NCBI GenBank assembly: GCA_039588295.1 | Contig: JBDHAB010000012.1 | Location: 1-62,038, forward strand | Direction: 5' to 3' | DNA length: 62,038 nucleotides | From: Gemmatimonadota bacterium | GTDB lineage: Bacteria > Gemmatimonadota > Gemmatimonadetes > Gemmatimonadales > GWC2-71-9 | In this document: in pieces, positions 32,642-51,183 of the stretch | Layout of the letters: the number at the start of each line of letters is the position of its first letter | How positions within the stretch are numbered: position 1 is the first letter of the stretch | Made by a program: the position numbers and the translations under genes | The notes under the pieces: model-generated | Told to the model about the DNA's origin: nothing | Databases searched by the model: none | What the model saw: the letters and a program-made list of their open reading frames with translations, nothing else

Positions 32642-32761
32642 GGGTGCTCCGCAATGTACGACCGCCAGGCGGAAACGGGCCAGGGCACACCGGCGGCCTT
32701 GAGATGCGAGGGGCGCGGGAGTACAATCTCGGCGACCCCCCAAACGGAACGCGAGAGAGCC

Positions 32762-35221
32762 ATGGCGCGGAAGAAGCGAACCAACACCAAGACGTTCGAG
32801 AAGCTGGGGGCGTTCTATCTGGGGCGCCGCTACGATGCCGATCAGGCGGCCGTCACGCCCGAGCTCGTCTTGTACGACGCGAAGGACTTGACGACCCACG
32901 CACTCTGTGTCGGTATGACGGGGAGCGGGAAGACGGGACTCTGCGTGTCCCTACTGGAGGAAGCGGCGATCGACGGCATTCCCGCGATCGCGATCGACCC
33001 CAAGGGCGATCTCGGAAATCTCCTGCTGAATTTTCCGTTGCTTCGGCCCGAGGATTTTCGACCGTGGATCGACGAATCACAGGCGGCCCGCAAGGGCATG
33101 AGCCCGGACGAATACGCGGCTGCGGTCGCGAGCATGTGGAAGGAAGGGCTGGCCGACTGGGGGCAGGACGGCGCGCGTCTCCGGCGTCTTCGTGATGCGT
33201 CCGACGTCGCCATCTACACGCCTGGCAGTAGTGCCGGCCTGCAGCTGATGTTGCTCCGCTCGTTCACCGCGCCGGACGCCGCGCTCGTTGAGGACACGGA
33301 CGCATTGCGTGAGCGCGTGGCTGCAACGGTAGCCGGTCTCCTGGCCTTGGTGGGGATCGAGGCGGACCCGGTACGCAGCCGGGAGCACATTCTCCTGTCG
33401 AATCTGTTCGAGCGGGCGTGGTCGGAGGGGCGGGATCTCGACCTGCCGTCGTTGATTACGGAGGTACAGTCTCCGCCCCTCGAGAAGGTCGGGGTGATGG
33501 ATCTCGAGATGTTCTATCCGAGCAAGGAGCGAGTCGAGCTCTCCATGACGTTGAACAACCTCCTTGCCTCGCCGGGGTTCGCGGCCTGGATGGAAGGGGA
33601 GCCGTTTGAAGTCTCCCGCCTCCTGTGGACGCCCGACGGGCGTCCGCGCATCTCGGTGCTGTCCATAGCGCACCTGTCCGAGGCCGAGCGGATGTTCTTC
33701 GTGACGATACTGCTCAACGAGGTCATCGCGTGGATGCGTACGCAGTCGGGCACGGCGAGTCTCCGGGCGCTCCTGTACATGGATGAAGTGTTCGGCTACT
33801 TCCCGCCGACCGCGAATCCGCCGTCCAAGACGGCAATGTTGACCCTGCTCAAGCAGGCACGCGCGTACGGCCTCGGCGTCGTTCTGGCCACACAGAATCC
33901 GGTTGATCTGGACTACAAGGGCCTCTCCAACGCGGGCACCTGGTTCCTCGGCCGGCTGCAGACGGAGCGCGACAAGGCACGAGTGATGGACGGGCTCGAG
34001 GGCGCCTCTGCCGCACAGGGGAAAGCGTTGGATCGTAAGCAGGTCGATCGCATTCTCTCGGGGCTCGACAGTCGCGTGTTCCTGATGCACAACGTGCACG
34101 AGGACGAGCCCGTGCTGTTTCATACGCGTTGGGCAATGTCGTATCTACGGGGACCGCTCACGCGCACCCAGATCCAGCAACTCATGGCAGATCGCAAGCG
34201 CGAGTCCGTCGCAGCGGCACCGCCCCGTCGGAAAGCTCGCCCGGCCGGTGGTAAGGCGAAGCCGTCAAAGTCGACCGGCGGCCGGCCGGTGATTCATGCG
34301 GACATTGAGGAGTCCTTCATGCCGTCGGTGCGCGCTGCTGGCCGGCTGGTGTATCGGCCGGCGCTGCTTGGCACGGCCGACCTGCACTTCGCCAATGCGC
34401 GGGCGGGTGTGGACTCGTGGGAGACGGTCGCGTACGTCGCCCCGCTGCGCGCCAAAGCGGGTGCGAAGATCTGGGACACATCCGAGCCGTTGGAAAGTGG
34501 TGAGCCCGAGCTGGTGAACGAGCCCGACGAGGGGGCGGAATTCAACTCACTGCCGAAGAAGGCGACTCAAGCGTCATCGTACACATCGTGGCAGAAGGCG
34601 TTCAAGACGCACTTGTACAAGCAGAACACGATCGGACTCTTCAAGTGCAAGGAGCTCAAGCTCAGCTCGCAGCCAGGTGAGACGGAGGCCGAGTTCCACA
34701 TTCGGCTTCGCGAGGCCGCGCGGGAGAAGCGGGACGGGGCGGTAGAGAAACTGCGCAAACGGTATGGGCCCAAACTGGCGCGGTTGCAGGAGCGGATCCG
34801 GCGAGGCCAGGAGCGGGTTGGGAAGGAGAAGTCGCAGTACGATCAACAGAAGATGCAGACGGCCGTGTCGATGGGCGCGACGGTCCTGGGGGCGCTGTTC
34901 GGTCGCAAAGTGGCCAGTGTGGGAACGGTTGGTCGCGCCACGACCACGATGCGAGGCATGGGGCGCGCGTCCCGAGAGAAGCAGGATGTTGCTCGTGCGG
35001 CTCGGGACCTCGAGGCGCTCGAGCAGCAACTCGCGGACCTGGAGGTGGAGTTCCAGGAGGAAGTGGCGGTGCTGGGCGATGCCGTCAGCGTCGACGCGTT
35101 TGAAGTGAAAGAGGTGGTGATCCGACCACGAAAGACCGACATCGCCATCGGCCATTTCGGTCTGGTGTGGCTCCCCTGGACGGTCGACGACGACGGCATG
35201 GCCGAACCAGCCTACGAATGA
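32762..35221 (+). CDS. HerA/FtsK-like P-loop ATPase (DUF87-type)
   Basis: HALCVGMTGSGKT, IDPKGD, YMDEVFG, ATQNPVDLD; C-terminal coiled coil. Confidence 0.88.
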   Translation: MARKKRTNTKTFEKLGAFYLGRRYDADQAAVTPELVLYDAKDLTTHALCVGMTGSGKTGLCVSLLEEAAIDGIPAIAIDPKGDLGNLLLNFPLLRPEDFRPWIDESQAARKGMSPDEYAAAVASMWKEGLADWGQDGARLRRLRDASDVAIYTPGSSAGLQLMLLRSFTAPDAALVEDTDALRERVAATVAGLLALVGIEADPVRSREHILLSNLFERAWSEGRDLDLPSLITEVQSPPLEKVGVMDLEMFYPSKERVELSMTLNNLLASPGFAAWMEGEPFEVSRLLWTPDGRPRISVLSIAHLSEAERMFFVTILLNEVIAWMRTQSGTASLRALLYMDEVFGYFPPTANPPSKTAMLTLLKQARAYGLGVVLATQNPVDLDYKGLSNAGTWFLGRLQTERDKARVMDGLEGASAAQGKALDRKQVDRILSGLDSRVFLMHNVHEDEPVLFHTRWAMSYLRGPLTRTQIQQLMADRKRESVAAAPPRRKARPAGGKAKPSKSTGGRPVIHADIEESFMPSVRAAGRLVYRPALLGTADLHFANARAGVDSWETVAYVAPLRAKAGAKIWDTSEPLESGEPELVNEPDEGAEFNSLPKKATQASSYTSWQKAFKTHLYKQNTIGLFKCKELKLSSQPGETEAEFHIRLREAAREKRDGAVEKLRKRYGPKLARLQERIRRGQERVGKEKSQYDQQKMQTAVSMGATVLGALFGRKVASVGTVGRATTTMRGMGRASREKQDVARAARDLEALEQQLADLEVEFQEEVAVLGDAVSVDAFEVKEVVIRPRKTDIAIGHFGLVWLPWTVDDDGMAEPAYE

Positions 35222-36409: not shown

Positions 36410-37909
36410 ATGGAAGGCTTCGATCAACTCTGGCAGTCGATGCGGGACTACCTGCCCAGCCTGCTCGCGGCGCTCGCCATTCTCGTCGTGGGCTGGATTG
36501 CGGCGCGCATCATTGCCGCGCTTGTGCGCGCCGGACTCAAGCGTACGACCATTGACAACAAGCTGGCCGTGTGGCTCGCGGGCGAAGAACGTGGTAAGAG
36601 CATCGCCGTCGAGAATGTGGCTGCCAAGATCGTGTTCTACACGATCTTGGTGTTCGTGCTGATCGCGTTCTTCCAGACGATCGGTCTCACACAGCTCGCC
36701 CAGCCGCTCAACGTTTTGCTCAACGAAGTCTTCGCGTTTGCGCCCCGCTTGTTTGGCGCGGCGGCCCTCGCGGCGGTTGCGTGGCTCGTCGCGACGGCGT
36801 TGCGGATGGTCGTGACGCGGGTGTTGGCCCGAACGAAGCTCGACGAGCGGGTCGGCCAGGAGGCGGGACGGGAAGGTGTCGCGCCAATCCCGCTCAGTAA
36901 GACCCTGGGCGACGCCGTGTACTGGCTCGTCTTCCTGTTGTTCTTGCCCGCGATCCTCGGGGCGCTCGCCTTGGAAGGGCTGCTGGAGCCTGTCCAGGTG
37001 ATGATGAACAAGGTGCTCGAGTATCTCCCAAACGTCGCCAGCGCGGCGGCGATCCTGCTGGTAGGCTGGTTCGTCGCGCGGATCATCCAGCGGGTCGTTG
37101 GCAGTCTGCTTGCCGCCGTCGGCCTCGATCGGTTGAGCGAGAGCACTGGTATTTCCCGCGCGTTGGGGTCGCAGAGCCTGTCGCAGTTGCTGGCCCTGGT
37201 GGTCTACGTGCTCATCTTGATTCCCGTACTGGTCTCCGCCCTGAACGCGCTGGGACTCGAAGCCGTCACCCGGCCGGCCAGCAATATGCTCGACACGCTG
37301 TTGAGTGCCGTTCCACGACTGTTTGCCGCGGGACTGGTGCTAGCAATCGCCTACATGATCGGCCGGATCGTGTCGGATCTCCTGAGCAGCCTGCTGCGGG
37401 GTGCGGGCTTCGACAACTTGCTCGGCCGCCTCGGCCTCAAGACCGCGGAACTCGAGGAGAACCGACGGCCCTCGTCGGTTGCCGGCTATCTGGCAATGGC
37501 CGCGATCATGTTCTTCGCGGCGATCGAGGCGTTCACGCTCATGGGTTTGGGCACCCTCGCCGGCCTCGGCGCGGAACTCCTGGTATTCGGCGGCCACGTA
37601 CTCGTGGGTCTCGTCATTTTTGGCGCAGGCCTCTACCTCGCGAATCTCGCCGGTAGTACCATTCAGGCGGGCGGCGCCTCGCAGGCACGGCTGCTGGCCG
37701 CTGGGGCGCGAGTGGCCATCTTGGTCCTGGCAGGCGCCATGGCCCTGCGGCAGCTCGGGGTCGCGGACGAGATCATCACGCTCGCCTTCGGGCTGAGCCT
37801 TGGCGCGATCGCCGTCGCCGCAGCAGTAGCATTTGGACTCGGAGGGCGCGATCTTGCAGCGCGTCAACTGGACGAGTGGCACAGCGATATGCGTGGTGGA
37901 GACCGGTAG
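36410..37909 (+). CDS. TM-helix repeat membrane protein (CmpX/MscS-associated family)
   Basis: Repeated YLP.L.AA..IL.VGW.IAR units; C-terminal AFGLGGRD.A. Confidence 0.85.
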   Translation: MEGFDQLWQSMRDYLPSLLAALAILVVGWIAARIIAALVRAGLKRTTIDNKLAVWLAGEERGKSIAVENVAAKIVFYTILVFVLIAFFQTIGLTQLAQPLNVLLNEVFAFAPRLFGAAALAAVAWLVATALRMVVTRVLARTKLDERVGQEAGREGVAPIPLSKTLGDAVYWLVFLLFLPAILGALALEGLLEPVQVMMNKVLEYLPNVASAAAILLVGWFVARIIQRVVGSLLAAVGLDRLSESTGISRALGSQSLSQLLALVVYVLILIPVLVSALNALGLEAVTRPASNMLDTLLSAVPRLFAAGLVLAIAYMIGRIVSDLLSSLLRGAGFDNLLGRLGLKTAELEENRRPSSVAGYLAMAAIMFFAAIEAFTLMGLGTLAGLGAELLVFGGHVLVGLVIFGAGLYLANLAGSTIQAGGASQARLLAAGARVAILVLAGAMALRQLGVADEIITLAFGLSLGAIAVAAAVAFGLGGRDLAARQLDEWHSDMRGGDR

Positions 37910-38834: not shown

Positions 38835-40376
38835 TCAGGATTCCTCCGGCCGCGGTTCCGAGGGTCCCATCCGCGCCGCGCCGCGCTTGAGCCGGAACCA
38901 GAACCGCGATCCGCGCCTGGGCCGGTTCTCCTGCCCGATAACGCCGCCCCAGCCTTCGACGGCGATGCGACAGAAGTGGAGGCCGAGTCCCGCCTCCCCG
39001 GTCTTCCCACCAGCCTGGGAGAATCGATCGAACAGTCTTGGCGCGAGTTGCGTGGGGACGCCCGGTCCCTCGTCCTCGACGCCGACGGTCACGGCGTCCT
39101 CGCCGGGCCGAACGTCGACGCACACCGCCGTCCCTGGGCTCGAATGCCGCAGCGCGTTGTCCAGAAGATTGGCCACCACGCGCATGAGGCGTGTGCGTTC
39201 CGCATGCACGCCCCACTCGTCTGCCTCCCCGACATCGAGGGTCAAACCCACGTTTCGGAGCTGGAAGGCGGGCATGAAGCCCTCAACCACCTCTCGCGTG
39301 CACGCAACGATGTTCACGGGTTCGTGATCTTCGGCCAGTTCCTCGAGTTGCTGGAGGTCTGCGGCAAACACGTCGAGGATGGAGCGGATGAGGAGGTCCT
39401 GACGCTCGAGTTCTGAGCGCCCGACGGCGAGCGTTCGCTGCGCGGCATCCGGGAGGGTCTCGGCGGCGAGCAGCTGGAGCGCCGCGTGTGCCGATACCAT
39501 GGGCGTGCGGAGGTCGTGCACGATGCAGTGTAGCAGGACGTCCTTCTTCTCGATCTCCTTGAGAAGCTGCTGGTGGCCGAGGGCCTGCTCACGCGCCTCT
39601 TGGAGCAAGGCGAGCTTCTCGTGGTACGGCCTCCCCACATCGGCAATCGTGAGCAGGGAGCGTTCCCCAAGCGTGCGGGCTACGGCCTCGAGGTGCCACT
39701 CGCGGCCGGCGTCATCGATCTCTGTCCAAATTCCCGACCGCCGCTCGGCCTCGCCCGCGAACCAGCAGCTTCGTGCTTCCACCAAGAAGTCGTGCAGGAA
39801 CGGCGAGCGGTCTTGTGGCGTGAACGGACCGCTTCCCGTCCGCGCCTCCGGCCAGATCCGGGCAAGCCACGGCGGCGCATGACCGATGACGCGGAACCGC
39901 TCTGATTCGACCGGCTCGAGCACGCCGATACCCAAGGCCGCGAGTAGATCGGCGACGAATGACGCGCGGACAGGTGTGGAGGCGCCGGGTGGACGCCCCC
40001 GATCCTCGAGGAGGCTCAACACGTTCCGGCTCTGTTGGAGCTGGCGTTCCTGCTCGAACTCTCTCGTGGCATTCACGAACACCACCCAGGTGCCGCGCCC
40101 GCTCCGAAACAGCGATAGGTCGGCGACCAATCCGGTCTCCGTTTCGACCCGAGGCAGGTGCTGGGCGTCGTCGGTAAGCGGAATGAAGCCTTGCAGCACG
40201 GAAACGTGCTCGACCATGTCCACACCGTGCCGAGGCTCTGGAATGCCGTACTCGTCGAGGGGTCCCCCCCACTCGACGAGTTTCCCCTCGTTGTCAGCCA
40301 GGAGGTAGGCCGGCGACTGGGTCCGGACGAGTTGTTGCTGAAGGAACTCCAGCACCGGACGGGGGAGTTCGGTCAT
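38835..40376 (-). CDS. Cytoplasmic sensor histidine kinase with two PAS-like domains
   Basis: IVHDLRTP, NLLDNALRH, DEGPG, GLGLHFC; ATGA overlap with GTPase stop. Confidence 0.88.
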   Translation of the reverse strand: MTELPRPVLEFLQQQLVRTQSPAYLLADNEGKLVEWGGPLDEYGIPEPRHGVDMVEHVSVLQGFIPLTDDAQHLPRVETETGLVADLSLFRSGRGTWVVFVNATREFEQERQLQQSRNVLSLLEDRGRPPGASTPVRASFVADLLAALGIGVLEPVESERFRVIGHAPPWLARIWPEARTGSGPFTPQDRSPFLHDFLVEARSCWFAGEAERRSGIWTEIDDAGREWHLEAVARTLGERSLLTIADVGRPYHEKLALLQEAREQALGHQQLLKEIEKKDVLLHCIVHDLRTPMVSAHAALQLLAAETLPDAAQRTLAVGRSELERQDLLIRSILDVFAADLQQLEELAEDHEPVNIVACTREVVEGFMPAFQLRNVGLTLDVGEADEWGVHAERTRLMRVVANLLDNALRHSSPGTAVCVDVRPGEDAVTVGVEDEGPGVPTQLAPRLFDRFSQAGGKTGEAGLGLHFCRIAVEGWGGVIGQENRPRRGSRFWFRLKRGAARMGPSEPRPEES

Positions 40377-40870
40377 CGGGGCCGAATCGTCTCGCGCCCA
40401 ATCCACAGGAAGGCTTCCTCCACGCCTTCCCCGGTCTTCGCGCTCGTCTCGAACACCTTCCAACCGGCACCCGCCAGATCTGATGGTGCCCGCGCGTCGA
40501 GATCCCACTCCTTGACGAGAGCGGACTTGTTGAGCGCGACGACGCTGGGAACGCTGCCCACCGTGTCCTCGGCCACCTGTCGCAGGACCTGCGCTTGATC
40601 GAGCGTCACGCGGCGCGTTCCATCTACGACGAAGATCAGTCCGGAGGATCCTCGGAGATACGACGTGCGGACCGTCTGGTAGGTATCCTCGCCGGCGAGA
40701 TCCCACAGCAGGAGGGTCACGGGTTTGCCGTCAATCTCCACGCGCTTGCGGTCGATCTTGACGCCCACCGTGGTGTGGTACCGCTCGTCGAACAGGGTGT
40801 GTACGAAACGCCGCACCAGGCTCGTCTTTCCGGCAGCGAACGCTCCCAGCATGCAGATCTTCTTCTGCAT
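40373..40870 (-). CDS. Rab/Ras-like small GTPase
   Basis: G1 GAFAAGKTS, G2 TTVGV, G3 WDLAG, G4 NKSA (variant), G5 TSAK. Confidence 0.92.
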   Translation of the reverse strand: MQKKICMLGAFAAGKTSLVRRFVHTLFDERYHTTVGVKIDRKRVEIDGKPVTLLLWDLAGEDTYQTVRTSYLRGSSGLIFVVDGTRRVTLDQAQVLRQVAEDTVGSVPSVVALNKSALVKEWDLDARAPSDLAGAGWKVFETSAKTGEGVEEAFLWIGRETIRPR

Positions 40871-40884
40871 CACCTGCGCTCCCC

Positions 40885-42669
40885 TTACTCGTTCTGGGTG
40901 AGCAGGACGCGGAAGGTCACGCTGCGGTTCCGCTGCTGCCGAGCGGCAGTCGCGTTCCCTGGAAGGGGGTCATCGGCGGCCAGTGGAACAATGCCCAGTC
41001 CAGCCGGCGCCACGCCTCGGGACACCAGCGCATCGCGGACCGCGATCGCCCGCTGTTCACTGAGCAACCGATTGGTGGATTCCGATCCCGACGCATCAGT
41101 CCGCCCCAGTATCTCGATGGCCACCGCCTGCCCGAGTCGGTCCATCTCGTCTTGGAGCGAACGAATGCGTGGTGCGATCGCGTCGAGGGATGCGCCTTGC
41201 GCAACGCCAATGGTGGCCGACCCCGCTCCGAACAGGACCACTTGGCTCTCGATGTCGCGGCGCAGGTCGGCGACACGGACCGCATCGCCGACGCGTACCG
41301 CTCCGAGGTCGACCCCTGTGACGCCGGGGATCGTGGGCGCGAGTCGCTCGGCTGCCGCGATCCAGCTCTGTGGTGCAATCCCCGAGGCGTACAATGTCCC
41401 GTCCCTCGCGTCGAGGGAAACATTCGGCGGCGGTTGCAGCACGTGCCGCGATCGGGCCTCCACCAGCTGTGGATCGAACGAGGCATAGTGCTCCCACTGC
41501 GCTCTCACGTCATCCACGTCGAGTTTGGATTCTGCGATGAGGGTCGCGGGGTCCGCGGCCAACGGATCCCGCAGGCCTGTCAATACGAATCGCCCTCGGT
41601 GGCGCTCTGCCTCGGTCACCACGATTCCCGGCGTGGCACGCAGCCGCTCGACGAGTCCCGACCAGCGACGCGCGGTCCGCACGCTGACGAACGCCCAGGC
41701 CGCCACGAGCACGAAGACGATGACCAGGATCGCGAGCACGGCGCGGGACAGGAACGGGCCTCGCTCCTTCCGCTCCGCCACCTGCATTTGGAGGCATCCG
41801 TCGAGTATCGGCCGAGCCAGTTCGAACGGCGCCGCGTCGCCCTCGAACGCCGTCAGTTCCTTGCCGAACTCGAGGTGGACCGTCTCGATGGCGTCCTGCA
41901 GGACCACGGTCAGCTCGTTGGGCGCGTGTCCGCGAACGACCGCGGCGATGACTGCGTGTGGTCCCTGCTCGACCCGCACCGTGAACTCACCGACTGAGAA
42001 CGTTCTCAGGCCCGACTCCCGTTCGACACCGAACGAGTCCGCCATGAAATCTTGAATCGCCGTGAGCATGCTCGACACGAGGTCGGCGTCTTGCTGAATC
42101 CCGGCTTCCGCCGCCGCCTGGCAGAGCACGAGCCCGGTGTCTCGATCAATGAGGAATACCTGATCAACCGAGTAGACCAGGGTGTGTCGCAGGACGACCT
42201 GGGCGAACGGAACGCCGGTGCGCATGGCCTCCATCCGCCATTTGAACCCGCGCCACGAGAGGTTGTGCTGTGTCGCCGTGTTGATGGCCTGGATCAGACC
42301 ACTCATGGCTTGGGAGATGGCCTTGCGAATGGCGGGCCCCAGAACCGGGAAGATCGCCTCCGCGAGTGCGCCCGGGTTCCTCCGCACCGACTGCTTGATG
42401 GCCTCTTCGAGGGTCGGCGCCAGCGCCTTGCTCAGCCGTTGGTCACGTTGCGTACTGTAGACGATGGCATCGGGGAGAACCTCGCCGACCTCCTCTGGGC
42501 CGACAGCGAGTCTCTCCAATCGGTCCCAGATCTCTTCGATCTCGGCGGCTTCGCGCCCGACCAAGATCCGGCGCAACTCGGCGAGCTGTTCCGAGCTCAA
42601 CGCCTGCGCGCGGTCCGGGGCATCGGCAGCCGCCTCGCTGGAAGGGTCGGGCGTCAGGTGTTCGGCCAC
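40885..42669 (-). CDS. Longin-like/TM/BON-like/OmpA multidomain protein
   Basis: QVFLIDRDTGLVL..DADLVSSMLTAIQDF domain, TM, GLRDPLA, C-terminal GRTD..N..LS..RA..NRSV OmpA motif. Confidence 0.8.
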   Translation of the reverse strand: MAEHLTPDPSSEAAADAPDRAQALSSEQLAELRRILVGREAAEIEEIWDRLERLAVGPEEVGEVLPDAIVYSTQRDQRLSKALAPTLEEAIKQSVRRNPGALAEAIFPVLGPAIRKAISQAMSGLIQAINTATQHNLSWRGFKWRMEAMRTGVPFAQVVLRHTLVYSVDQVFLIDRDTGLVLCQAAAEAGIQQDADLVSSMLTAIQDFMADSFGVERESGLRTFSVGEFTVRVEQGPHAVIAAVVRGHAPNELTVVLQDAIETVHLEFGKELTAFEGDAAPFELARPILDGCLQMQVAERKERGPFLSRAVLAILVIVFVLVAAWAFVSVRTARRWSGLVERLRATPGIVVTEAERHRGRFVLTGLRDPLAADPATLIAESKLDVDDVRAQWEHYASFDPQLVEARSRHVLQPPPNVSLDARDGTLYASGIAPQSWIAAAERLAPTIPGVTGVDLGAVRVGDAVRVADLRRDIESQVVLFGAGSATIGVAQGASLDAIAPRIRSLQDEMDRLGQAVAIEILGRTDASGSESTNRLLSEQRAIAVRDALVSRGVAPAGLGIVPLAADDPLPGNATAARQQRNRSVTFRVLLTQNE

Positions 42670-42693
42670 GGATGCAGAGTCAGACGTGAGCTC

Positions 42694-42802
42694 TCACTTG
42701 CCGGGGCGCTGCTCATCGGAGAGCCGAGACGCCATGTCGGCGAACAGCGCCGCCAGCGAAACCCGGTCGGTCTTCTCGGCCCGCAGCTCTTCGAACTTCC
42801 GG
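42694..42802 (-). pseudogene. 3' remnant of coiled-coil protein normally preceding the OmpA gene
   Basis: Reads RKFEELRAEKTDRVSLAALFADMASRLSDEQRPGK* with no own start before the junction. Confidence 0.6.
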
Positions 42803-43390
42803 GATCTCGCGGACGAAGTACGGGCCGGACGGTTTCGTGAGGATCTCTACTTTCGAATCGCGGTCATGGATCTCAAGGTGGAGCCGCTGCGCCAGCGACC
42901 AGACGACATCCCCTTGCTTGCACGACACTTCTTGCGCCAGGTCCAGGGACCGGTGCGCGATCTCGCTCCGGCTGCGCTTCGCATACTGGTGGAGCACTCG
43001 TGGCCGGGCAATGTCCGCGAGCTGCAAAACGCCATCGAGCGCGCGGCGGTCGAGGCGGAGGAGCGCGTGATCCAGCCCCGTGACCTTCCGAGCCGCGTGT
43101 TTGGTGGCGTAACGACTGGTGTCCCGAGCCGTCGGTCGGCGGGGGCACCGCAGGCAGCCTCGGTGGATGCCGGCATCGTCGGGCCAACCGGCGTGTCGCT
43201 GGCTGGCGCACCCGAATCCGAGCGAGCGGCGTCGACCGCAGCAAGCCCACAAACCCTCGAGGAAATCGAGCGTGACGCGATCGCGGCGGCCCTGGCCCGC
43301 AACAGAGGCAACGTGGCACAGGTGGTTCGCGAGCTTGGGATCGGACGGACCACGCTGTATCGCAAAATCAAGAAATACGGGCTGCGCTAG
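42800..43390 (+). pseudogene. 3' fragment of a sigma-54 enhancer-binding protein
   Basis: RDL..GRFREDLYFRI, WPGNVRELQN, Fis HTH LGIGRTTLYRK; REC, Walker A and GAFTGA absent. Confidence 0.85.
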
Positions 43391-43545: not shown

Positions 43546-43596
43546 CTTCTCTGGCGACGCCTGAATGATGTCACTCTCTATGTGGAGGATCAGGGC

Positions 43597-45042
43597 ATGT
43601 GTAAGACCTGGATGACTCGGGGCATCCCTGTGCTGGCAGCGGCCGTCATGGCGGCGGCGCCGCTCGCGGCTCAGAGCCCCGGGACGGTGGAGCTTGGAGC
43701 GTTCGGCCGCTACACGGCATTCGACGCGACGTTGGCTCTCAAAAACCGATTGGGTGGTGGCGGTCGGTTTGGCGTATTCGTCGTGCCCAATCTGGAGGTC
43801 GAGGGTACGGGTTCCTGGACCGGAACCGAGGTAGAGGGCTCGGGGGCGGATGTGTCGTACCTGCCGTTCCACGCTCGCCTCGTCTACAACCTTCCGGTTC
43901 ATGAGCGCGCGGCCGTGCTGATCGGTGCGGGCTTGGTGCACACGCAGTACCAGAACACCGCCGATGCCTCGGATGACGGGGCGAACGGTCTGCTAGGATT
44001 GCGGTTCTGGCTGTCAGATGCGGTGTCGGGCCGTGTCGAGGGACTCCTGGACTACATACCTGCGCCCACGAACGGCGCGGGCAACAACGTGAACTGGGGC
44101 GCCCAGGCCGGCCTCAGCGTGTTCCTCGGAGGCCGGGCCGCCGACGCCGACGGTGATGGGGTGCGGGACGACCGCGATGCCTGCCCCGGCACGAGCATGG
44201 GCGAAGCGGTGGATGCCCGAGGCTGCCCGCTGGATTCTGACAACGATGGTGTACGTGACTCGGGAGATCGGTGCCCGAGCACCCCGGCCGGCGAAGTCGT
44301 TGACAGCAGTGGGTGCCCGCGAGACAGCGATGGCGACGGCGTGCGTGACTCCGCCGATCGGTGCGCCAACACGCCGGCGGGTGTATCCGTTGATGCCAGC
44401 GGATGCCCGACGGACGCTGACGGAGATGGAGTAGCGGATGCGCGGGATCGCTGCCCGAACACTCCGGCAGGTGCGGCGGTGGATGCGAATGGCTGCCCGC
44501 GTGACAGTGACGGCGACGGCGTGGCCGACGCGCAGGACCGCTGCCCCAACACGCCGGCCGGCGCGACCGTGGATGCCAATGGATGTCCGGGCGACGCGGA
44601 CGGTGACGGCGTGCCTGACGGGATCGACCGCTGTGGGGACACCGCTCCGGGAACCGAGGTCGACGCGAACGGCTGTCCCGTCCTGTTCGAAGAAGACGTA
44701 GTGCGGATTGTCCTCGAAGGCGTGACGTTCGCAACCAACAGTGCTGACCTGACGGCCGAAGCGCGGACGGTGCTCGATCGCGTGGCGGCGTCGCTTCGGG
44801 GCAACCTGGAAGTGCGTGTCGAGGTCGGCGGTCACACCGATGCCACCGGATCGCGGGAGTACAACCTCCAGTTGTCGCAGTCCCGCGCTGAATCGGTCGT
44901 AGCGTACCTCGTTCAGCAGGGTGTCGCCTCCGACCGCATGGAAGCACGCGGGTATGGTCCCGACAACCCGGTCGCCGACAAGGCCACTCGGGAAGGTCGG
45001 GCTCAGAACCGGCGCGTCGAGTTGCGCCGGACCGATCAGTAG
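43597..45042 (+). CDS. OmpA family protein: beta-barrel + thrombospondin type-3 repeats + OmpA C-domain
   Basis: GGAGG RBS, signal AAQ, barrel, DxDxDG..D.CP repeats, GHTD..N..LS..RA..NRRVE. Confidence 0.92.
   Translation: MCKTWMTRGIPVLAAAVMAAAPLAAQSPGTVELGAFGRYTAFDATLALKNRLGGGGRFGVFVVPNLEVEGTGSWTGTEVEGSGADVSYLPFHARLVYNLPVHERAAVLIGAGLVHTQYQNTADASDDGANGLLGLRFWLSDAVSGRVEGLLDYIPAPTNGAGNNVNWGAQAGLSVFLGGRAADADGDGVRDDRDACPGTSMGEAVDARGCPLDSDNDGVRDSGDRCPSTPAGEVVDSSGCPRDSDGDGVRDSADRCANTPAGVSVDASGCPTDADGDGVADARDRCPNTPAGAAVDANGCPRDSDGDGVADAQDRCPNTPAGATVDANGCPGDADGDGVPDGIDRCGDTAPGTEVDANGCPVLFEEDVVRIVLEGVTFATNSADLTAEARTVLDRVAASLRGNLEVRVEVGGHTDATGSREYNLQLSQSRAESVVAYLVQQGVASDRMEARGYGPDNPVADKATREGRAQNRRVELRRTDQ
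44143..44682 (+). repeat. Six 90-bp (30-aa) TSP3 coding repeats
   Basis: D(A/S)DGDGV.D..DRCP.TP.G..VD..GCP x6. Confidence 0.9.
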
Positions 45043-45064
45043 TGTAGTTCAGCTGCCGTAGTCG

Positions 45065-45096
45065 GGTGGTGCGCTGCCTGGGGGCGGCGCACCACC
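45065..45096 (+). terminator. 14-bp stem-loop between ompA-like gene and mscL
   Basis: GGTGGTGCGCTGCC-TGGG-GGCGGCGCACCACC. Confidence 0.5.
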
Positions 45097-45134
45097 ACTC
45101 TGCGCCCTCCATCACAGTCAGCAGGAGCGTCAAG

Positions 45135-45590
45135 GTGCTAAAGGATTTCAAAGATTTTGCCATGCGGGGAAACGTCGTCGACATGGCGGTCGGCATCATC
45201 ATCGGCGGCGCGTTCGGGACGATCGTGAAGTCGCTCGTGTCGGATGTCTTGATGCCACCGATCGGCCTGTTGCTCGGTGGCGTGAGCTTTTCCGATCTGT
45301 TTGTCACGCTGAAAGCTGGCGAGACAGCGGGCCCGTATCTGAATCCGGAAGCAGCGGCCGAGGTAGGCGCTGTGACGGTCAACTACGGTGTCTTCATTGA
45401 CAACATCATCAGCTTCATCATCGTTGCGTTCGCGGTGTTCATGCTGGTGCGTACGATCATGAAGATGCAGCGTCAAGAAGAAGCGGCGCCACCACCACCG
45501 GACAAGAAGGATTGTCCGTTCTGTCTCTCCAACGTGGCGATCAAAGCCACCCGCTGCCCGAACTGCACGTCGGAGTTGAAGGCGGCGTAG
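45135..45590 (+). CDS. mscL: Large-conductance mechanosensitive channel with C-terminal zinc-ribbon
   Basis: [42 protein letters not shown] tail; GTG after AGGAG. Confidence 0.95.
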
Positions 45591-47460: not shown

Positions 47461-47591
47461 TGTCACACATCACATCACGGAATCTCGCGTGTGCGCTATG
47501 TCACGGGCCGATTTCGCTCCGGAATCGATAATAGTGGTGTCAGCTGACCGGGGTCTTCTCCGCCGGTCCAGGCTTGGTTCCGGAGGCCCTC

Positions 47592-49292
47592 ATGGTGGAC
47601 ATCACGAAACTCAAACAGCAGGCGCGCGCCCTAGAGCAGCAGGGTGATTTAGCGGCCGCGCTCGGCGCCTACAGGGAGGTTCTCAGACAGTTTGAGCTCG
47701 CGCCGAACGTCGAGCCCGATGTCCCGTTGTACGTGAAGGTCGGCGACCTGTCGCTCAAGACGGGAGACCAGACGGTTGCCCTCGACATGTTCGAGCGAGC
47801 TGCGGAACGATACGCGGACCTCGGCTCCGCCAAGAGTGTCATCGCGCTGTGTCTCAAGATCATCCGAACCGATCCGCGGCGGACTGATGTGTATCTTCGG
47901 TACGCACGCCGCCTGCTTGCCAAGGGCCACGTCGAGTCCACCCGCCTGGTCCTGCTCGATTGCGCACAGCGTGCCAAGCTGCAAAAGACCCTGAACACAC
48001 TCCAGGAACTCGGCGAGCGCCCTGAGTCCGAGCGCAGGGGACTGCTCGAGCAGTTCTTCGCAGCGGTCACCCACGGTACCGGGACCCACGTGGCGCTCGG
48101 TGGGCCGTTGGACCCGAGCACAGCGGACGCCGCCCCACCGAAACCGGAGCAGGCCGAGCGACCGGCCGCCACCACGAGGGCAACGCCCGCGGCGGTTCCG
48201 GAGCAGACGAAACCGCAACCGTCCGTGAGCGATCGCAAACCACGACCGTCCCGGCCCACACCGGTTGAGGAGCCGCCGGTTCCGGCTGCCGCCGACCCGG
48301 TGGTCGCAGAGATCCGCAGCCGTCCGTTCCCGACGAAGGCGGTGGCCACGCCAAGCGCCGCGACACCGCCGGTTGAGGTGCCGCCCGCGACCGTTCCGAA
48401 GCCTCAGCCAACCGTTCCACGGACACCCATGCGGCGGACCGAGCCGCCCCAGCGGCGTCCCTGGAGACTCGCCACGTTCCGCCGAGAGCTCAGAGCGCGT
48501 CCCGCTTGGCTGTGGCCGGCCATGTCTGCCGCCGCCGTCGTGGTGGTCGGTGTCGGCCTCCTCGGGTTTGGCGCGATGTCGTCGGGTGCCGAGCTTGGGG
48601 CAGCCCCGCCGGAGCTGCCGATCCCCTTGGCGAGCATGAGGGCCGCCGGAGACTCGCTCGCCGACTCATCGTCATCGCCGGCTGACAACGCGGCCGAGAC
48701 CGGTGCCGTCGTGGCGGTACCGGAGTCCAAGCCGGAGCCGGTCAAACGGACGCGCATCGCGAGTTCGCGCTCGGTCGTGCCGTCCGAGCTGGATCCATCG
48801 GCCCTCGCGGCAGCGCAGGAGGCAGCGCTGGCGGTTCGCTCCGACTCGGTGGATGTGGAGCTTAGTGACGACCTCACGTCCGTTGGCGCGACCCTCACCA
48901 TGCCGGCGGTGCCGCTCACGTCGGCCGCGACCAGTGGGCGGCTCGGTGCCGGCATGCGCGCCGCGCCCTCGCGACGGGGAGCGGCGTCGGAAGGGCCGGT
49001 GATTGTGATTGACGGCCTCGAGGTGGAGGCGGTGGCGCGATTCTCTGGCCCGGCCGGTGCCAGCCATCAAGTTGTGCAACGCCTGGAGAACGGCGGGCGG
49101 ATCACACTCCACGTCTCACCGTTTGCAGGCGCACCGAGGGGGGAGACCGGGAGGCTCCGAGTCGAGACGGACTCGGGAGCCACCGTGGGAACCGTGCGAT
49201 TCGAGGGCTTCTTCGTGACCGCCCGGGCAGACCTGTCCCCTGCGGTGCTCGAGGGTCTGCTCCGGCGGCTGACTCGGCAGGGAGGCAACTAG
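47592..49292 (+). CDS. TPR-like N-domain / Pro-rich linker / TM / periplasmic domain protein (paralog 1)
   Basis: GGAGG RBS; LYVKVGDL..SAKSVIALCLKI; single TM; C-domain VIVIDGL..VVQRL..GTVRF..VLEGLL. Confidence 0.75.
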   Translation: MVDITKLKQQARALEQQGDLAAALGAYREVLRQFELAPNVEPDVPLYVKVGDLSLKTGDQTVALDMFERAAERYADLGSAKSVIALCLKIIRTDPRRTDVYLRYARRLLAKGHVESTRLVLLDCAQRAKLQKTLNTLQELGERPESERRGLLEQFFAAVTHGTGTHVALGGPLDPSTADAAPPKPEQAERPAATTRATPAAVPEQTKPQPSVSDRKPRPSRPTPVEEPPVPAAADPVVAEIRSRPFPTKAVATPSAATPPVEVPPATVPKPQPTVPRTPMRRTEPPQRRPWRLATFRRELRARPAWLWPAMSAAAVVVVGVGLLGFGAMSSGAELGAAPPELPIPLASMRAAGDSLADSSSSPADNAAETGAVVAVPESKPEPVKRTRIASSRSVVPSELDPSALAAAQEAALAVRSDSVDVELSDDLTSVGATLTMPAVPLTSAATSGRLGAGMRAAPSRRGAASEGPVIVIDGLEVEAVARFSGPAGASHQVVQRLENGGRITLHVSPFAGAPRGETGRLRVETDSGATVGTVRFEGFFVTARADLSPAVLEGLLRRLTRQGGN

Positions 49293-49382: not shown

Positions 49383-49497
49383 CGTGTGTTGGGGTGCTCG
49401 GCCCGCGTAGTTGCTCTGCTCTCTGTCTCCACTACCTTACCTGGTGAGTCCGGACTTCTCTGAGCCGTCGGCTCGACTTTTCAGGAGACGAGCGCCA

Positions 49498-51183
49498 ATG
49501 GACACGGCGACCCTGAAAGCGCAGGCACGCGCGCTCGAACAGCAGGGGAATGCGGTCGAGGCACTCGAGACCTACCACCGTATCCTCGCGCGGCTCGAAG
49601 GTACACCGGCCATCCACCGGGAGCTGCCGCTCTACGTCAAGATTGGCGACCTATCGCTGAGGACCGGCAACACGGCAGCCGCGATCACGATGTACGAACG
49701 GGCCGGCGAGCACTTCGCGACCCTTGGATCGGCGAAGAGCGTGATCGCGCTCTGTCTCAAAATCCTCCGCGCGGACCCTGATCGGACGGATGTGTATCCG
49801 AAACACGCCCGTCGGATGCTGCAGGCCGGCCACGCCGAGGCGACACGCGTCGTGCTTGTCGACTACGCGGAACGTGCCAAGCTGCAGAAGACGCTCGGGA
49901 CCCTGCGTCGGCTTGCCGGGCGCTCCGAAGCCGAGCTCACGGGCCTGCTTGAGAAGTTCTTCGAGACCATGGATCGGCGCGCCGAGAAGCGGGCGGAGCC
50001 GCCGGCGGCACGCATGCCTTCGCCGGCCGAGCCGCCGGTCCCAGCAGTGGAGCAGCCCATGCGATCGGCCGTGGAGGCCGAAGCATCGCCAGTACAGCCT
50101 GCTGTGCCGGAACCAGGTGCGGAGGAGGAAGAGCAACCGGACACGGACGTGTTGATTGTGCCGGTGGGAGAGGCGGAGACCGTCCAGCCGTTGGCAAGAC
50201 ACCAGGAGAGCGCTCCGACCCCGGCAGAGCGGCAAGAGCCCGAACCTCCAGTCGAGGAACACGTTCCACCACCGCGCGCACCCGAACCGCCGCCGCCCGT
50301 GCCACCCAAGGAAGTCCGGCCGCCTCTTGGACCCAAGCCGGCACGTCGTCCGTTGCGGGAAGTGCCTATGCCGGCACCCGCGCGCCGTGAGATCCTCATG
50401 CAGTATCAGCACCGCACGCGGTCGCGACCGGTCTGGTTCTGGCCCGGAATCGCGGCAGGTGTCTTGGCGGTCGCCGGGGCGGGCGTGATCGGTGTTGGGG
50501 CGATCACGCGAGGTGGGGAGTTGGAGCCGCCCCAGGGGGCCGAGCCGGCTCCATCCCCGGTTTCGCGTGCGGGGTCCCTTGCTGTCGGGCAGTCTGATAC
50601 GGGCGCGGCTCGGCTCGGCGTCGGCGATTCCGGTGCGGCGCTGCCGCTCAGTGGGGCGTTGACGCTCGATTCCGCGGAGCAAGGGGCCGCCCAGCCTCCA
50701 GCGTCGCGCGATACCGCCCTGCCGCCCGAATCGCTCGAGGTGCTCATCGACACGGTGGACGCCGGTGTGCCAGACCTTCCGGTGTCTGCGGCCCTGCCGA
50801 TCGATCGCGCGATTCCCGAGGTCGAGACACCGTCCGTGCAGACGGCACGCACTCCGGCGCTTCCACCGGGAACGACGATTCAAGGTTCAGTGATAGTGAT
50901 CGACAGGCTTCCTATCGATAGCGTCTCCGAATTCGCCGTTGGCGGTCGCACGGGGCAGCGAGTGGTGCAGCGTCTCCAATCCGGCGCCCGGGTCGTGCTG
51001 ACCGTGGTGCCGTTCCAAGGTGCTCCCGGCCAGGGAGCGGGTGCGTCAATACGCGTGATCACGGTGCCCGGGGATACGGCGGTTGGGACGGTGCGGTTCG
51101 CAGACAGGCTCGTCAGCGCCCGAGCGGTGGTTGCACCGGCCGTACTGGAAGGACTTCTGGGGCAATTGACCGAGGTCCGCTGA
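49498..51183 (+). CDS. TPR-like / Pro-rich / TM / periplasmic domain protein (paralog 2)
   Basis: AGGAG RBS; same N- and C-terminal motifs as 47592-49292. Confidence 0.75.
   Translation: MDTATLKAQARALEQQGNAVEALETYHRILARLEGTPAIHRELPLYVKIGDLSLRTGNTAAAITMYERAGEHFATLGSAKSVIALCLKILRADPDRTDVYPKHARRMLQAGHAEATRVVLVDYAERAKLQKTLGTLRRLAGRSEAELTGLLEKFFETMDRRAEKRAEPPAARMPSPAEPPVPAVEQPMRSAVEAEASPVQPAVPEPGAEEEEQPDTDVLIVPVGEAETVQPLARHQESAPTPAERQEPEPPVEEHVPPPRAPEPPPPVPPKEVRPPLGPKPARRPLREVPMPAPARREILMQYQHRTRSRPVWFWPGIAAGVLAVAGAGVIGVGAITRGGELEPPQGAEPAPSPVSRAGSLAVGQSDTGAARLGVGDSGAALPLSGALTLDSAEQGAAQPPASRDTALPPESLEVLIDTVDAGVPDLPVSAALPIDRAIPEVETPSVQTARTPALPPGTTIQGSVIVIDRLPIDSVSEFAVGGRTGQRVVQRLQSGARVVLTVVPFQGAPGQGAGASIRVITVPGDTAVGTVRFADRLVSARAVVAPAVLEGLLGQLTEVR

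Follow-up and report, generated by a model that had tools for sequence, protein, structure and literature searches.

Which protein regulates a Rab-like GTPase in a bacterium, and what does such a GTPase act on? This question is raised by an operon of a Gemmatimonadota bacterium (GenBank assembly GCA_039588295.1, a 160-contig draft that is 96% complete), which lies on contig JBDHAB010000012.1 (C12), analyzed here over its whole length of 62,038 nucleotides (nt; the window). All four parts of the operon are on the minus strand: the remnant of a coiled-coil gene, a 594-amino acid (aa) protein with an OmpA domain that we call the receptor, a 165-aa small GTPase, and a 513-aa histidine kinase. A first-pass annotation of the window had placed the same four parts at the same positions and had proposed that GTPase and kinase are translationally coupled, in agreement with the ATGA through which the kinase start overlaps the GTPase stop codon. 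It had also called such GTPases catalogued but largely uncharacterized, and this description holds: judged by its genes and their order, the operon is a Group 1 Rup system (DUFY > DUFX:OmpA > Rup > output), and the main text and searched supplements of the paper describing these neighborhoods (Wuichet and Søgaard-Andersen, 2014; PMC4316618) present Group 1 Rups as the prokaryotic GTPases most like Rab, Ran, Ras, and Rho, with no known regulator and with no Rup characterized as of 2014. The type of system has therefore been known since that year; what appears to be new is the assignment of the cytoplasmic domain of the receptor to the longin fold, with which eukaryotes turn on their Rab proteins; this assignment we did not find in print. 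We propose, tentatively and with a probability of roughly 0.42, that this predicted domain is a GEF-like (guanine nucleotide exchange factor-like) longin platform that would relay an envelope signal to Rup and then to the PAS-kinase.

The structure model of the cytoplasmic domain has the topology ββαβββαα, in which a single helix lies against one side of the sheet and two against the other, and supports a true longin fold. The first-pass annotation had expected a longin or roadblock fold at about 41860-42180. Its placement agrees with the model except at the 3' limit, which reaches about 41779 and takes in a third helix, and it is because of this third helix that the domain is assigned to the longins and not to the roadblocks. 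The roadblock topology (αββαβββα, with the leading helix packed on the sheet) was not found in the structure comparison, where MglB aligns without its first helix. Foldseek, the check that the annotation had suggested, ranked the GAP-type (GTPase-activating protein-type) roadblock MglB first and Asgard roadblocks also near the top, whereas over the whole domain the structural match was better with longins than with roadblocks: roadblock chains align to positions 145-253 of the model alone, from their own residue ~17-29 on, and longins align through the third helix. The top-scoring longins in the VIA comparison were VAMP7, Sec22, and AP subunits, and the identity of the receptor domain to the structurally matched chains is 7-18%. 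Atlas scores, all below the 0.9 threshold and treated as leads, were 0.77-0.79 for the leads to Asgard longin-like clusters. Within the predicted domain, conservation is highest in β1 and helix α1, the latter, with its exposed face, being the most conserved of the helices. The helical region directly before the longin is well conserved too (64-74%), and R246 of the receptor is near-invariant (97%). A GP motif before β2 marks the GAP-type longins FLCN, NPRL2, and SMCR8, according to passages of PMC12290439; this motif is absent from the 137 sequences compared (GL in 121, GP in 0).

The receptor contains a single hydrophobic segment (residues 310-328; Kyte-Doolittle ~3.1), and none is present in the kinase or the GTPase. 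Pfam places an OmpA domain at residues 480-582, and Rv0899 is the best PDB sequence match for residues 412-589 (E 1e-15); the likeness to Rv0899/ArfA-type BON-OmpA anchors lies in the periplasmic part, with the cytoplasmic longin and the helical region outside the match. The positions of D525 and R540 are invariant among 56 sequences, and we take them to be the peptidoglycan-binding positions of the OmpA domain, just as we presume the BON label for the periplasmic region. The receptor is likely a wall-anchored single-pass membrane protein. Its homologues include operon proteins of Mesorhizobium (37%) and Nostoc (27%), both genera having members in a receptor family of 1,563 clusters at 50% identity (E <= 1e-30). 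When short homologues standing alone were sought, 175 proteins came up, and the 120 listed resemble fragments of the receptor family. An LxxxRxILxG-like motif precedes the coiled coil both in the receptor N-terminus (residues ~26-36, 42564-42594) and in the coiled-coil homologues; statistical support for a motif shared by the two is weak (hhalign score 21.7, against at most 20.7 among 30 shuffles; probability 17%), and a coiled-coil profile matched none of 80 receptors.

The receptor and the GTPase are linked across genomes. Among 301 genomes of the phylum, the cytoplasmic part of the receptor was matched in 25, at E < 1e-60 in 23 and marginally, over the helical part alone, in the other two; the same 23 genomes hold a Rup at E <= 1e-25. 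In the genome loci retrieved, namely three named ones and 20 of the 22 that are non-self, Rup comes directly after the receptor and a whole coiled-coil gene before it in every instance (23 out of 23 for each). Of 570 metagenome loci, the best 80 were examined. Where at least 600 nt lie downstream (49 loci), the receptor is followed by Rup in 43, and of the six exceptions five carry Rup on the opposite strand; where at least 700 nt lie upstream (62 loci), a coiled-coil gene precedes the receptor in 61. Because Rup follows the receptor so constantly in both samples, the arrangement is not chance, and the synteny check named in the first-pass annotation turns out in favor of the receptor-GTPase pairing. 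The Mesorhizobium operon, with an adenylate cyclase as output, and the Nostoc operon, with a kinase, are homologous to the one described here; no relative was found among 64 pattern matches in viral contigs, and no RNA data set was listed as containing the sequence.

The genome itself holds three Rups and one receptor, the partners of the Rups being the kinase (in the window), a PP2C protein (contig C10), and a PAS-HD-GYP protein (contig C13). The latter two pairs (C10:99140-100476 and C13:9489-11029) each overlap by 4 nt and come without coiled-coil or receptor genes. In three genomes of the same genus (G149, G176, G109), the syntenic locus carries coiled-coil, Rup, and kinase genes with the receptor gene absent there, and the single detected receptor of each sits elsewhere, in an operon of coiled-coil, receptor, Rup, and PP2C genes. 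This gene content suggests that one receptor may serve several Rups in trans. Tandem Rup pairs stand behind the receptor in four further loci (L047-L050; G243, G122, G096, G186), where a sigma54 regulator lies upstream on the same strand, and a third, solitary Rup amid unrelated genes occurs in G122, G186, G243, and G298 (L151-L154).

The GTPase belongs to the Ras family (PF00071, E 4.6e-29), and its length is within the 150-240 aa of the Group 1 Rup definition. Its motifs include G1 GAFAAGKTS, G5 SAK, and a G3 (WDLAGE) that lacks the catalytic Gln; its C-terminus has no Cys, and a C-terminal Cys was found in 0 of 33 Rups. The window has NKSA as its G4 motif, where a second assembly and run X1 both have NKSD. 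With the Asp present in 33 out of 33 Rups as well, a genuinely degenerate G4 was rejected, and the Ala is probably a base error or else a minor allele. Single-base differences in runs X1 and X2, each resting on one low-depth contig, affect positions 40521 (GTPase residue 117), 40994 (receptor residue 559), and 42666 (receptor residue 2).

On the output side, Pfam recognizes HisKA and HATPase domains in the kinase, and its N-terminus was modelled as two PAS domains (28-sequence alignment, pLDDT 86.8). A conserved Gln sits in the helix after each of them (Q114/Q115 in 15 out of 15, Q259 in 21 out of 22), which we infer to be the N-terminal Gln of the Wuichet paper. The same two PAS modules, A and B, lie at the front of kinases and adenylate cyclases, of HD-GYP proteins, and of proteins made of PAS alone; a reading of A and B as duplicates of each other proved weak (probability 8%). 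The gene after Rup, for 87 distinct Rups, encodes a PP2C protein (24), PAS module A (18), PAS module B (16), a second Rup (4), or something else (24), and is cut off in one instance. The first-pass annotation had seen the GTPase as feeding a two-component pathway. This stands insofar as a kinase is coupled to Rup here; the pathway is not a defining feature of the system, because the kinase is one of several interchangeable outputs (kinase, cyclase, HD-GYP, PP2C). In 23 out of 24 PP2C-linked Rups, the site of the G3 Gln is occupied by Arg or Lys, which holds for none of the 61 other parseable Rups. The PP2C-linked Rups form a single clade (SH-aLRT 99) in a quick tree made solely of the Rup homologues of the fetched loci, Mesorhizobium and Nostoc included, and because of this the association counts as one event. 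It is possible that this Arg or Lys serves as a built-in catalytic residue. The loci of the PP2C type (L031-L040, L071, L079, L081, and others) have the PP2C output without a PAS-Gln module. Rups with a canonical G3 Gln (WDIYGQ; L078, L115, L135, L137, L142) precede proteins of ~200 aa that consist of PAS module B and an unannotated tail.

We propose the following chain of events. The longin domain of the receptor would bind the neighboring Rup and promote its loading with GTP, acting GEF-like rather than GAP-like, and the receptor would dimerize to present helix α1 as a GTPase platform, by analogy with longin and roadblock dimers. Once loaded with GTP, Rup would act on the PAS domains of the kinase and so switch it; the PAS-Gln module of the output would be the effector and, as Wuichet and Søgaard-Andersen proposed, may supply the Gln missing from G3. 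The coiled-coil protein would act as a scaffold, the divergently encoded sigma54 regulator is a candidate partner that the kinase may phosphorylate, and one receptor could serve several Rup-output pairs in trans. The wall anchor and the neighboring MscL and MscS-like genes hint at an envelope or osmotic cue as the signal.

Several observations weigh against this proposal. The fold has no counterpart at the sequence level: a PDB sequence search gave no longin match (10 hits, all helical noise), and there was no match to a Pfam longin family, one of 26 members touching Robl_LC7 (E 0.017). Foldseek puts a GAP-type roadblock first; the longins that score best, those of VAMP7, Sec22, and the AP subunits, are SNARE or adaptor domains and not GEFs; and a shared longin fold by itself shows no function. 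Conservation is poor (46%) in β3, the strand through which a dimer would be expected to form. The 23 genomes in which receptor and Rup co-occur all belong to two families, which makes them non-independent. As for the output, 24 of the 87 Rups have no recognized output gene alongside, the conserved Gln sits in a post-PAS helix and may be a coiled-coil packing residue, and in 5 of the 16 Rups followed by PAS module B, G3 still has its Gln, which weakens the idea of a Gln provided in trans.

Part of this evidence fits a role more like that of MglB, which we consider rather unlikely: the longin would bind Rup as an indirect GAP or as a neutral, membrane-localizing platform, keeping Rup off or in place until an envelope signal arrives. 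Besides the Foldseek ranking, this reading has in its favor that domains of this kind are platforms that may be GEF, GAP, or neither (Levine, 2013; PMC3747258, in the passages concerned), that a Rup with neither a catalytic Gln nor a C-terminal Cys lipid anchor therefore needs a helper and a tether, and that the receptor offers a near-invariant Arg; it is at odds with the better whole-domain match to longins and with the missing GP motif. We find it less probable still that the longin makes no contact with the GTPase and works within its own chain or as a scaffold, like SNARE and adaptor longins, by binding the receptor helices or the coiled-coil protein. Control of Rup would then fall to the helical region, to the coiled-coil protein, or to the output by itself, perhaps in a role that is structural for the envelope and not sensory. 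The identity of the best longin matches, the conservation of the helical region, a coiled-coil gene as constant as Rup, and the three relatives with coiled-coil, Rup, and kinase but no receptor gene at that locus are all consistent with it, whereas the conservation of the exposed α1 face, and the receptor gene that each of those relatives has at another locus, argue for contact. Finally, the predicted fold could be convergent or wrong, the domain being a generic α/β sandwich of the PAS, GAF, or profilin kind that binds a small molecule; the missing sequence-level link to longins, the low identity to matched chains, and the Atlas scores would be compatible with this, which we nevertheless hold to be very improbable.

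The operon resembles the published Group 1 Rup neighborhoods in its four genes and their order, in a GTPase without the G3 Gln, in a DUFX protein with transmembrane segment and OmpA domain, and in a kinase with a conserved N-terminal Gln; as described in the main text and searched supplements of PMC4316618, these comprise a coiled-coil DUFY, DUFX with transmembrane segment and OmpA, a GTPase whose G3 is without Gln, and, as output, a kinase or c-di-GMP enzyme in which an N-terminal Gln is invariant. In the same parts of that paper, Table S2 contains Mesorhizobium and Nostoc, the genera of the homologous operons, and no Gemmatimonadetes among the listed DUFX/DUFY rows; the passages on outputs make no mention of PP2C, adenylate cyclase, or HD-GYP; DUFX, here a predicted longin, is left unnamed; and the N-terminus of the output is here predicted to be a tandem PAS. 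The word 'longin' occurs 0 times in its main text and searched supplements (one supplement file was outside the search). DUFY is truncated in the present copy and whole in all 23 related loci. Eukaryotic and Asgard longin-GTPase platforms (Mon1-Ccz1/Ypt7, TRAPP/Ypt1, CPLANE, SRX; described in passages of PMC3747258) differ from the system proposed here, which is bacterial, has one longin per chain fused to a transmembrane segment and wall anchor, shows no detectable sequence similarity to them, pairs with a GTPase lacking the prenylation Cys, and has bacterial signaling enzymes and not vesicle traffic as output, as far as sequence and model tell. MglA/MglB and the actinobacterial conservon likewise combine a small GTPase, a platform protein of related fold, and a kinase in one operon, but the GTPase here is of the Rup type (G3 WDxxG) and not MglA, its partner has a predicted longin topology and is membrane- and wall-anchored, and the kinase is soluble. 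The passages of Levine (2013; PMC3747258) on this point record no longin domains in prokaryotes. Later papers, in the sections that touch on the subject, assign longins to Asgard archaea or, where bacteria are concerned, treat them together with roadblocks, Dey (2016) and an October 2026 preprint counting the two jointly, and DUFX is not assigned in the corresponding parts of Tran (2024), Zhang (2012), and Surkont (2016). The literature searched, which left out most subscription papers, contained no longin assignment of DUFX and, on Rup GTPases, PMC4316618 alone.

A longin in the constant partner of Rup would provide a concrete candidate regulator with a mutable surface (α1) and a simple assay. 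If the domain is indeed a bacterial longin GEF, then bacteria would have a cascade of receptor, small G protein, and effector, and the longin-Rab pairing of eukaryotic membrane traffic would have a bacterial counterpart, perhaps with a share in its origin. The broader claim, that many bacterial phyla encode a longin GEF for a Rab-like GTPase as a peptidoglycan-anchored receptor and that one such receptor drives several swappable effector cartridges (kinase, cyclase, phosphodiesterase, phosphatase), seems doubtful to us at present.

Table 1. Coordinates of the operon and of the adjoining regulator gene in the window.
Feature	Position	Strand	Basis or content
Coiled-coil (DUFY) remnant, last ~35 residues	42694..42801	-	Profile match
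Deletion junction CCGG	42799..42802		Synteny with three relatives; product of a junction-spanning open reading frame (ORF)
Receptor (DUFX:OmpA), 594 aa	40885..42669	-	Helical/coiled-coil N-terminus, predicted longin fold, one transmembrane helix, BON-like and OmpA region
Predicted longin domain, residues ~164-297	41779..42180	-	Structure model
Predicted transmembrane helix, residues 310-328	41686..41742	-	Kyte-Doolittle 19-mer peak 3.12
Periplasmic BON-like and OmpA C-terminal region	40903..41436	-	Pfam, PDB sequence match, invariant columns
Rup (Rab-like) GTPase, 165 aa	40373..40870	-	PF00071, G1-G5 motifs
Soluble histidine kinase, 513 aa	38835..40376	-	Two predicted PAS, HisKA (H287), HATPase
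Sigma54 activator, back half (AAA lid, HTH)	42800..43390	+	Divergent; whole in relatives

The copy of the operon in this genome has probably suffered a genuine deletion at 42800. A profile of 23 whole coiled-coil homologues matches the genome only at the remnant (E 3.5e-8; family positions 126-167 of 171), and a profile search found the N-terminal part nowhere else in it. In the three same-genus genomes the coiled-coil gene is whole, and its C-terminus shares 62-73% identity with the remnant; the gene order there is MscL, OmpF-like gene, a whole receiver-AAA-HTH sigma54 regulator (486 aa), a divergent gap, a whole coiled-coil gene, Rup, and kinase. Here the back half of the regulator abuts the coiled-coil tail at CCGG, and ~2.06 kb, measured on the three relatives, are missing: most of the coiled-coil gene, the intergenic region with the divergent promoters, and the front of the regulator including its receiver domain. 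Because of these losses the operon copy is probably impaired, even with the reading frames of receptor, Rup, and kinase intact, and the deletion makes it a poor model system. We rejected an inversion as the origin of the junction, the divergent layout being native in the three relatives. That the junction is an assembly artefact, and that the living genome has a whole coiled-coil gene and regulator, is improbable. In keeping with an artefact are the draft state of the assembly (160 contigs, and at least one probable base error close by), the three intact frames, and the only run contig listed across the junction, which passes it by ~12 nt, under the 31-nt standard; against it, the product of the junction-spanning ORF is on record on a second contig of 105,058 nt besides that of 62,038 nt, the GTPase there differing by one residue, and the missing N-terminus is found nowhere else in a genome that is 96% complete. 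The two assemblies showing the junction may share reads, so their independence is unsure.

A scan for sigma70 promoters and terminators found none, with just 0.4 and 2.0 expected. A candidate sigma54 promoter ahead of the OmpF-like gene (43531) is not supported: such a pattern turns up 24 times per Mb, and none was found at the corresponding position of the three syntenic relatives. The operon is flanked by an OmpF/OprF-like gene (beta-barrel, TSP3 repeats, OmpA) and by genes for MscL and an MscS-type protein with transmembrane helices (43582-45590, 36410-37909), and an OmpF-like gene adjoins Rup operons in L041, L043, and L047-L049 too. Farther along, two tandem paralogous genes encode proteins with TPR, a Pro-rich linker, and a transmembrane segment (47574-49292 and 49411-51183) and are followed by a kinase and a second sigma54 regulator. 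At 32654-35221, a gene for an 855-aa HerA/DUF87-like ATPase diverges from an unannotated gene for a 475-aa product.

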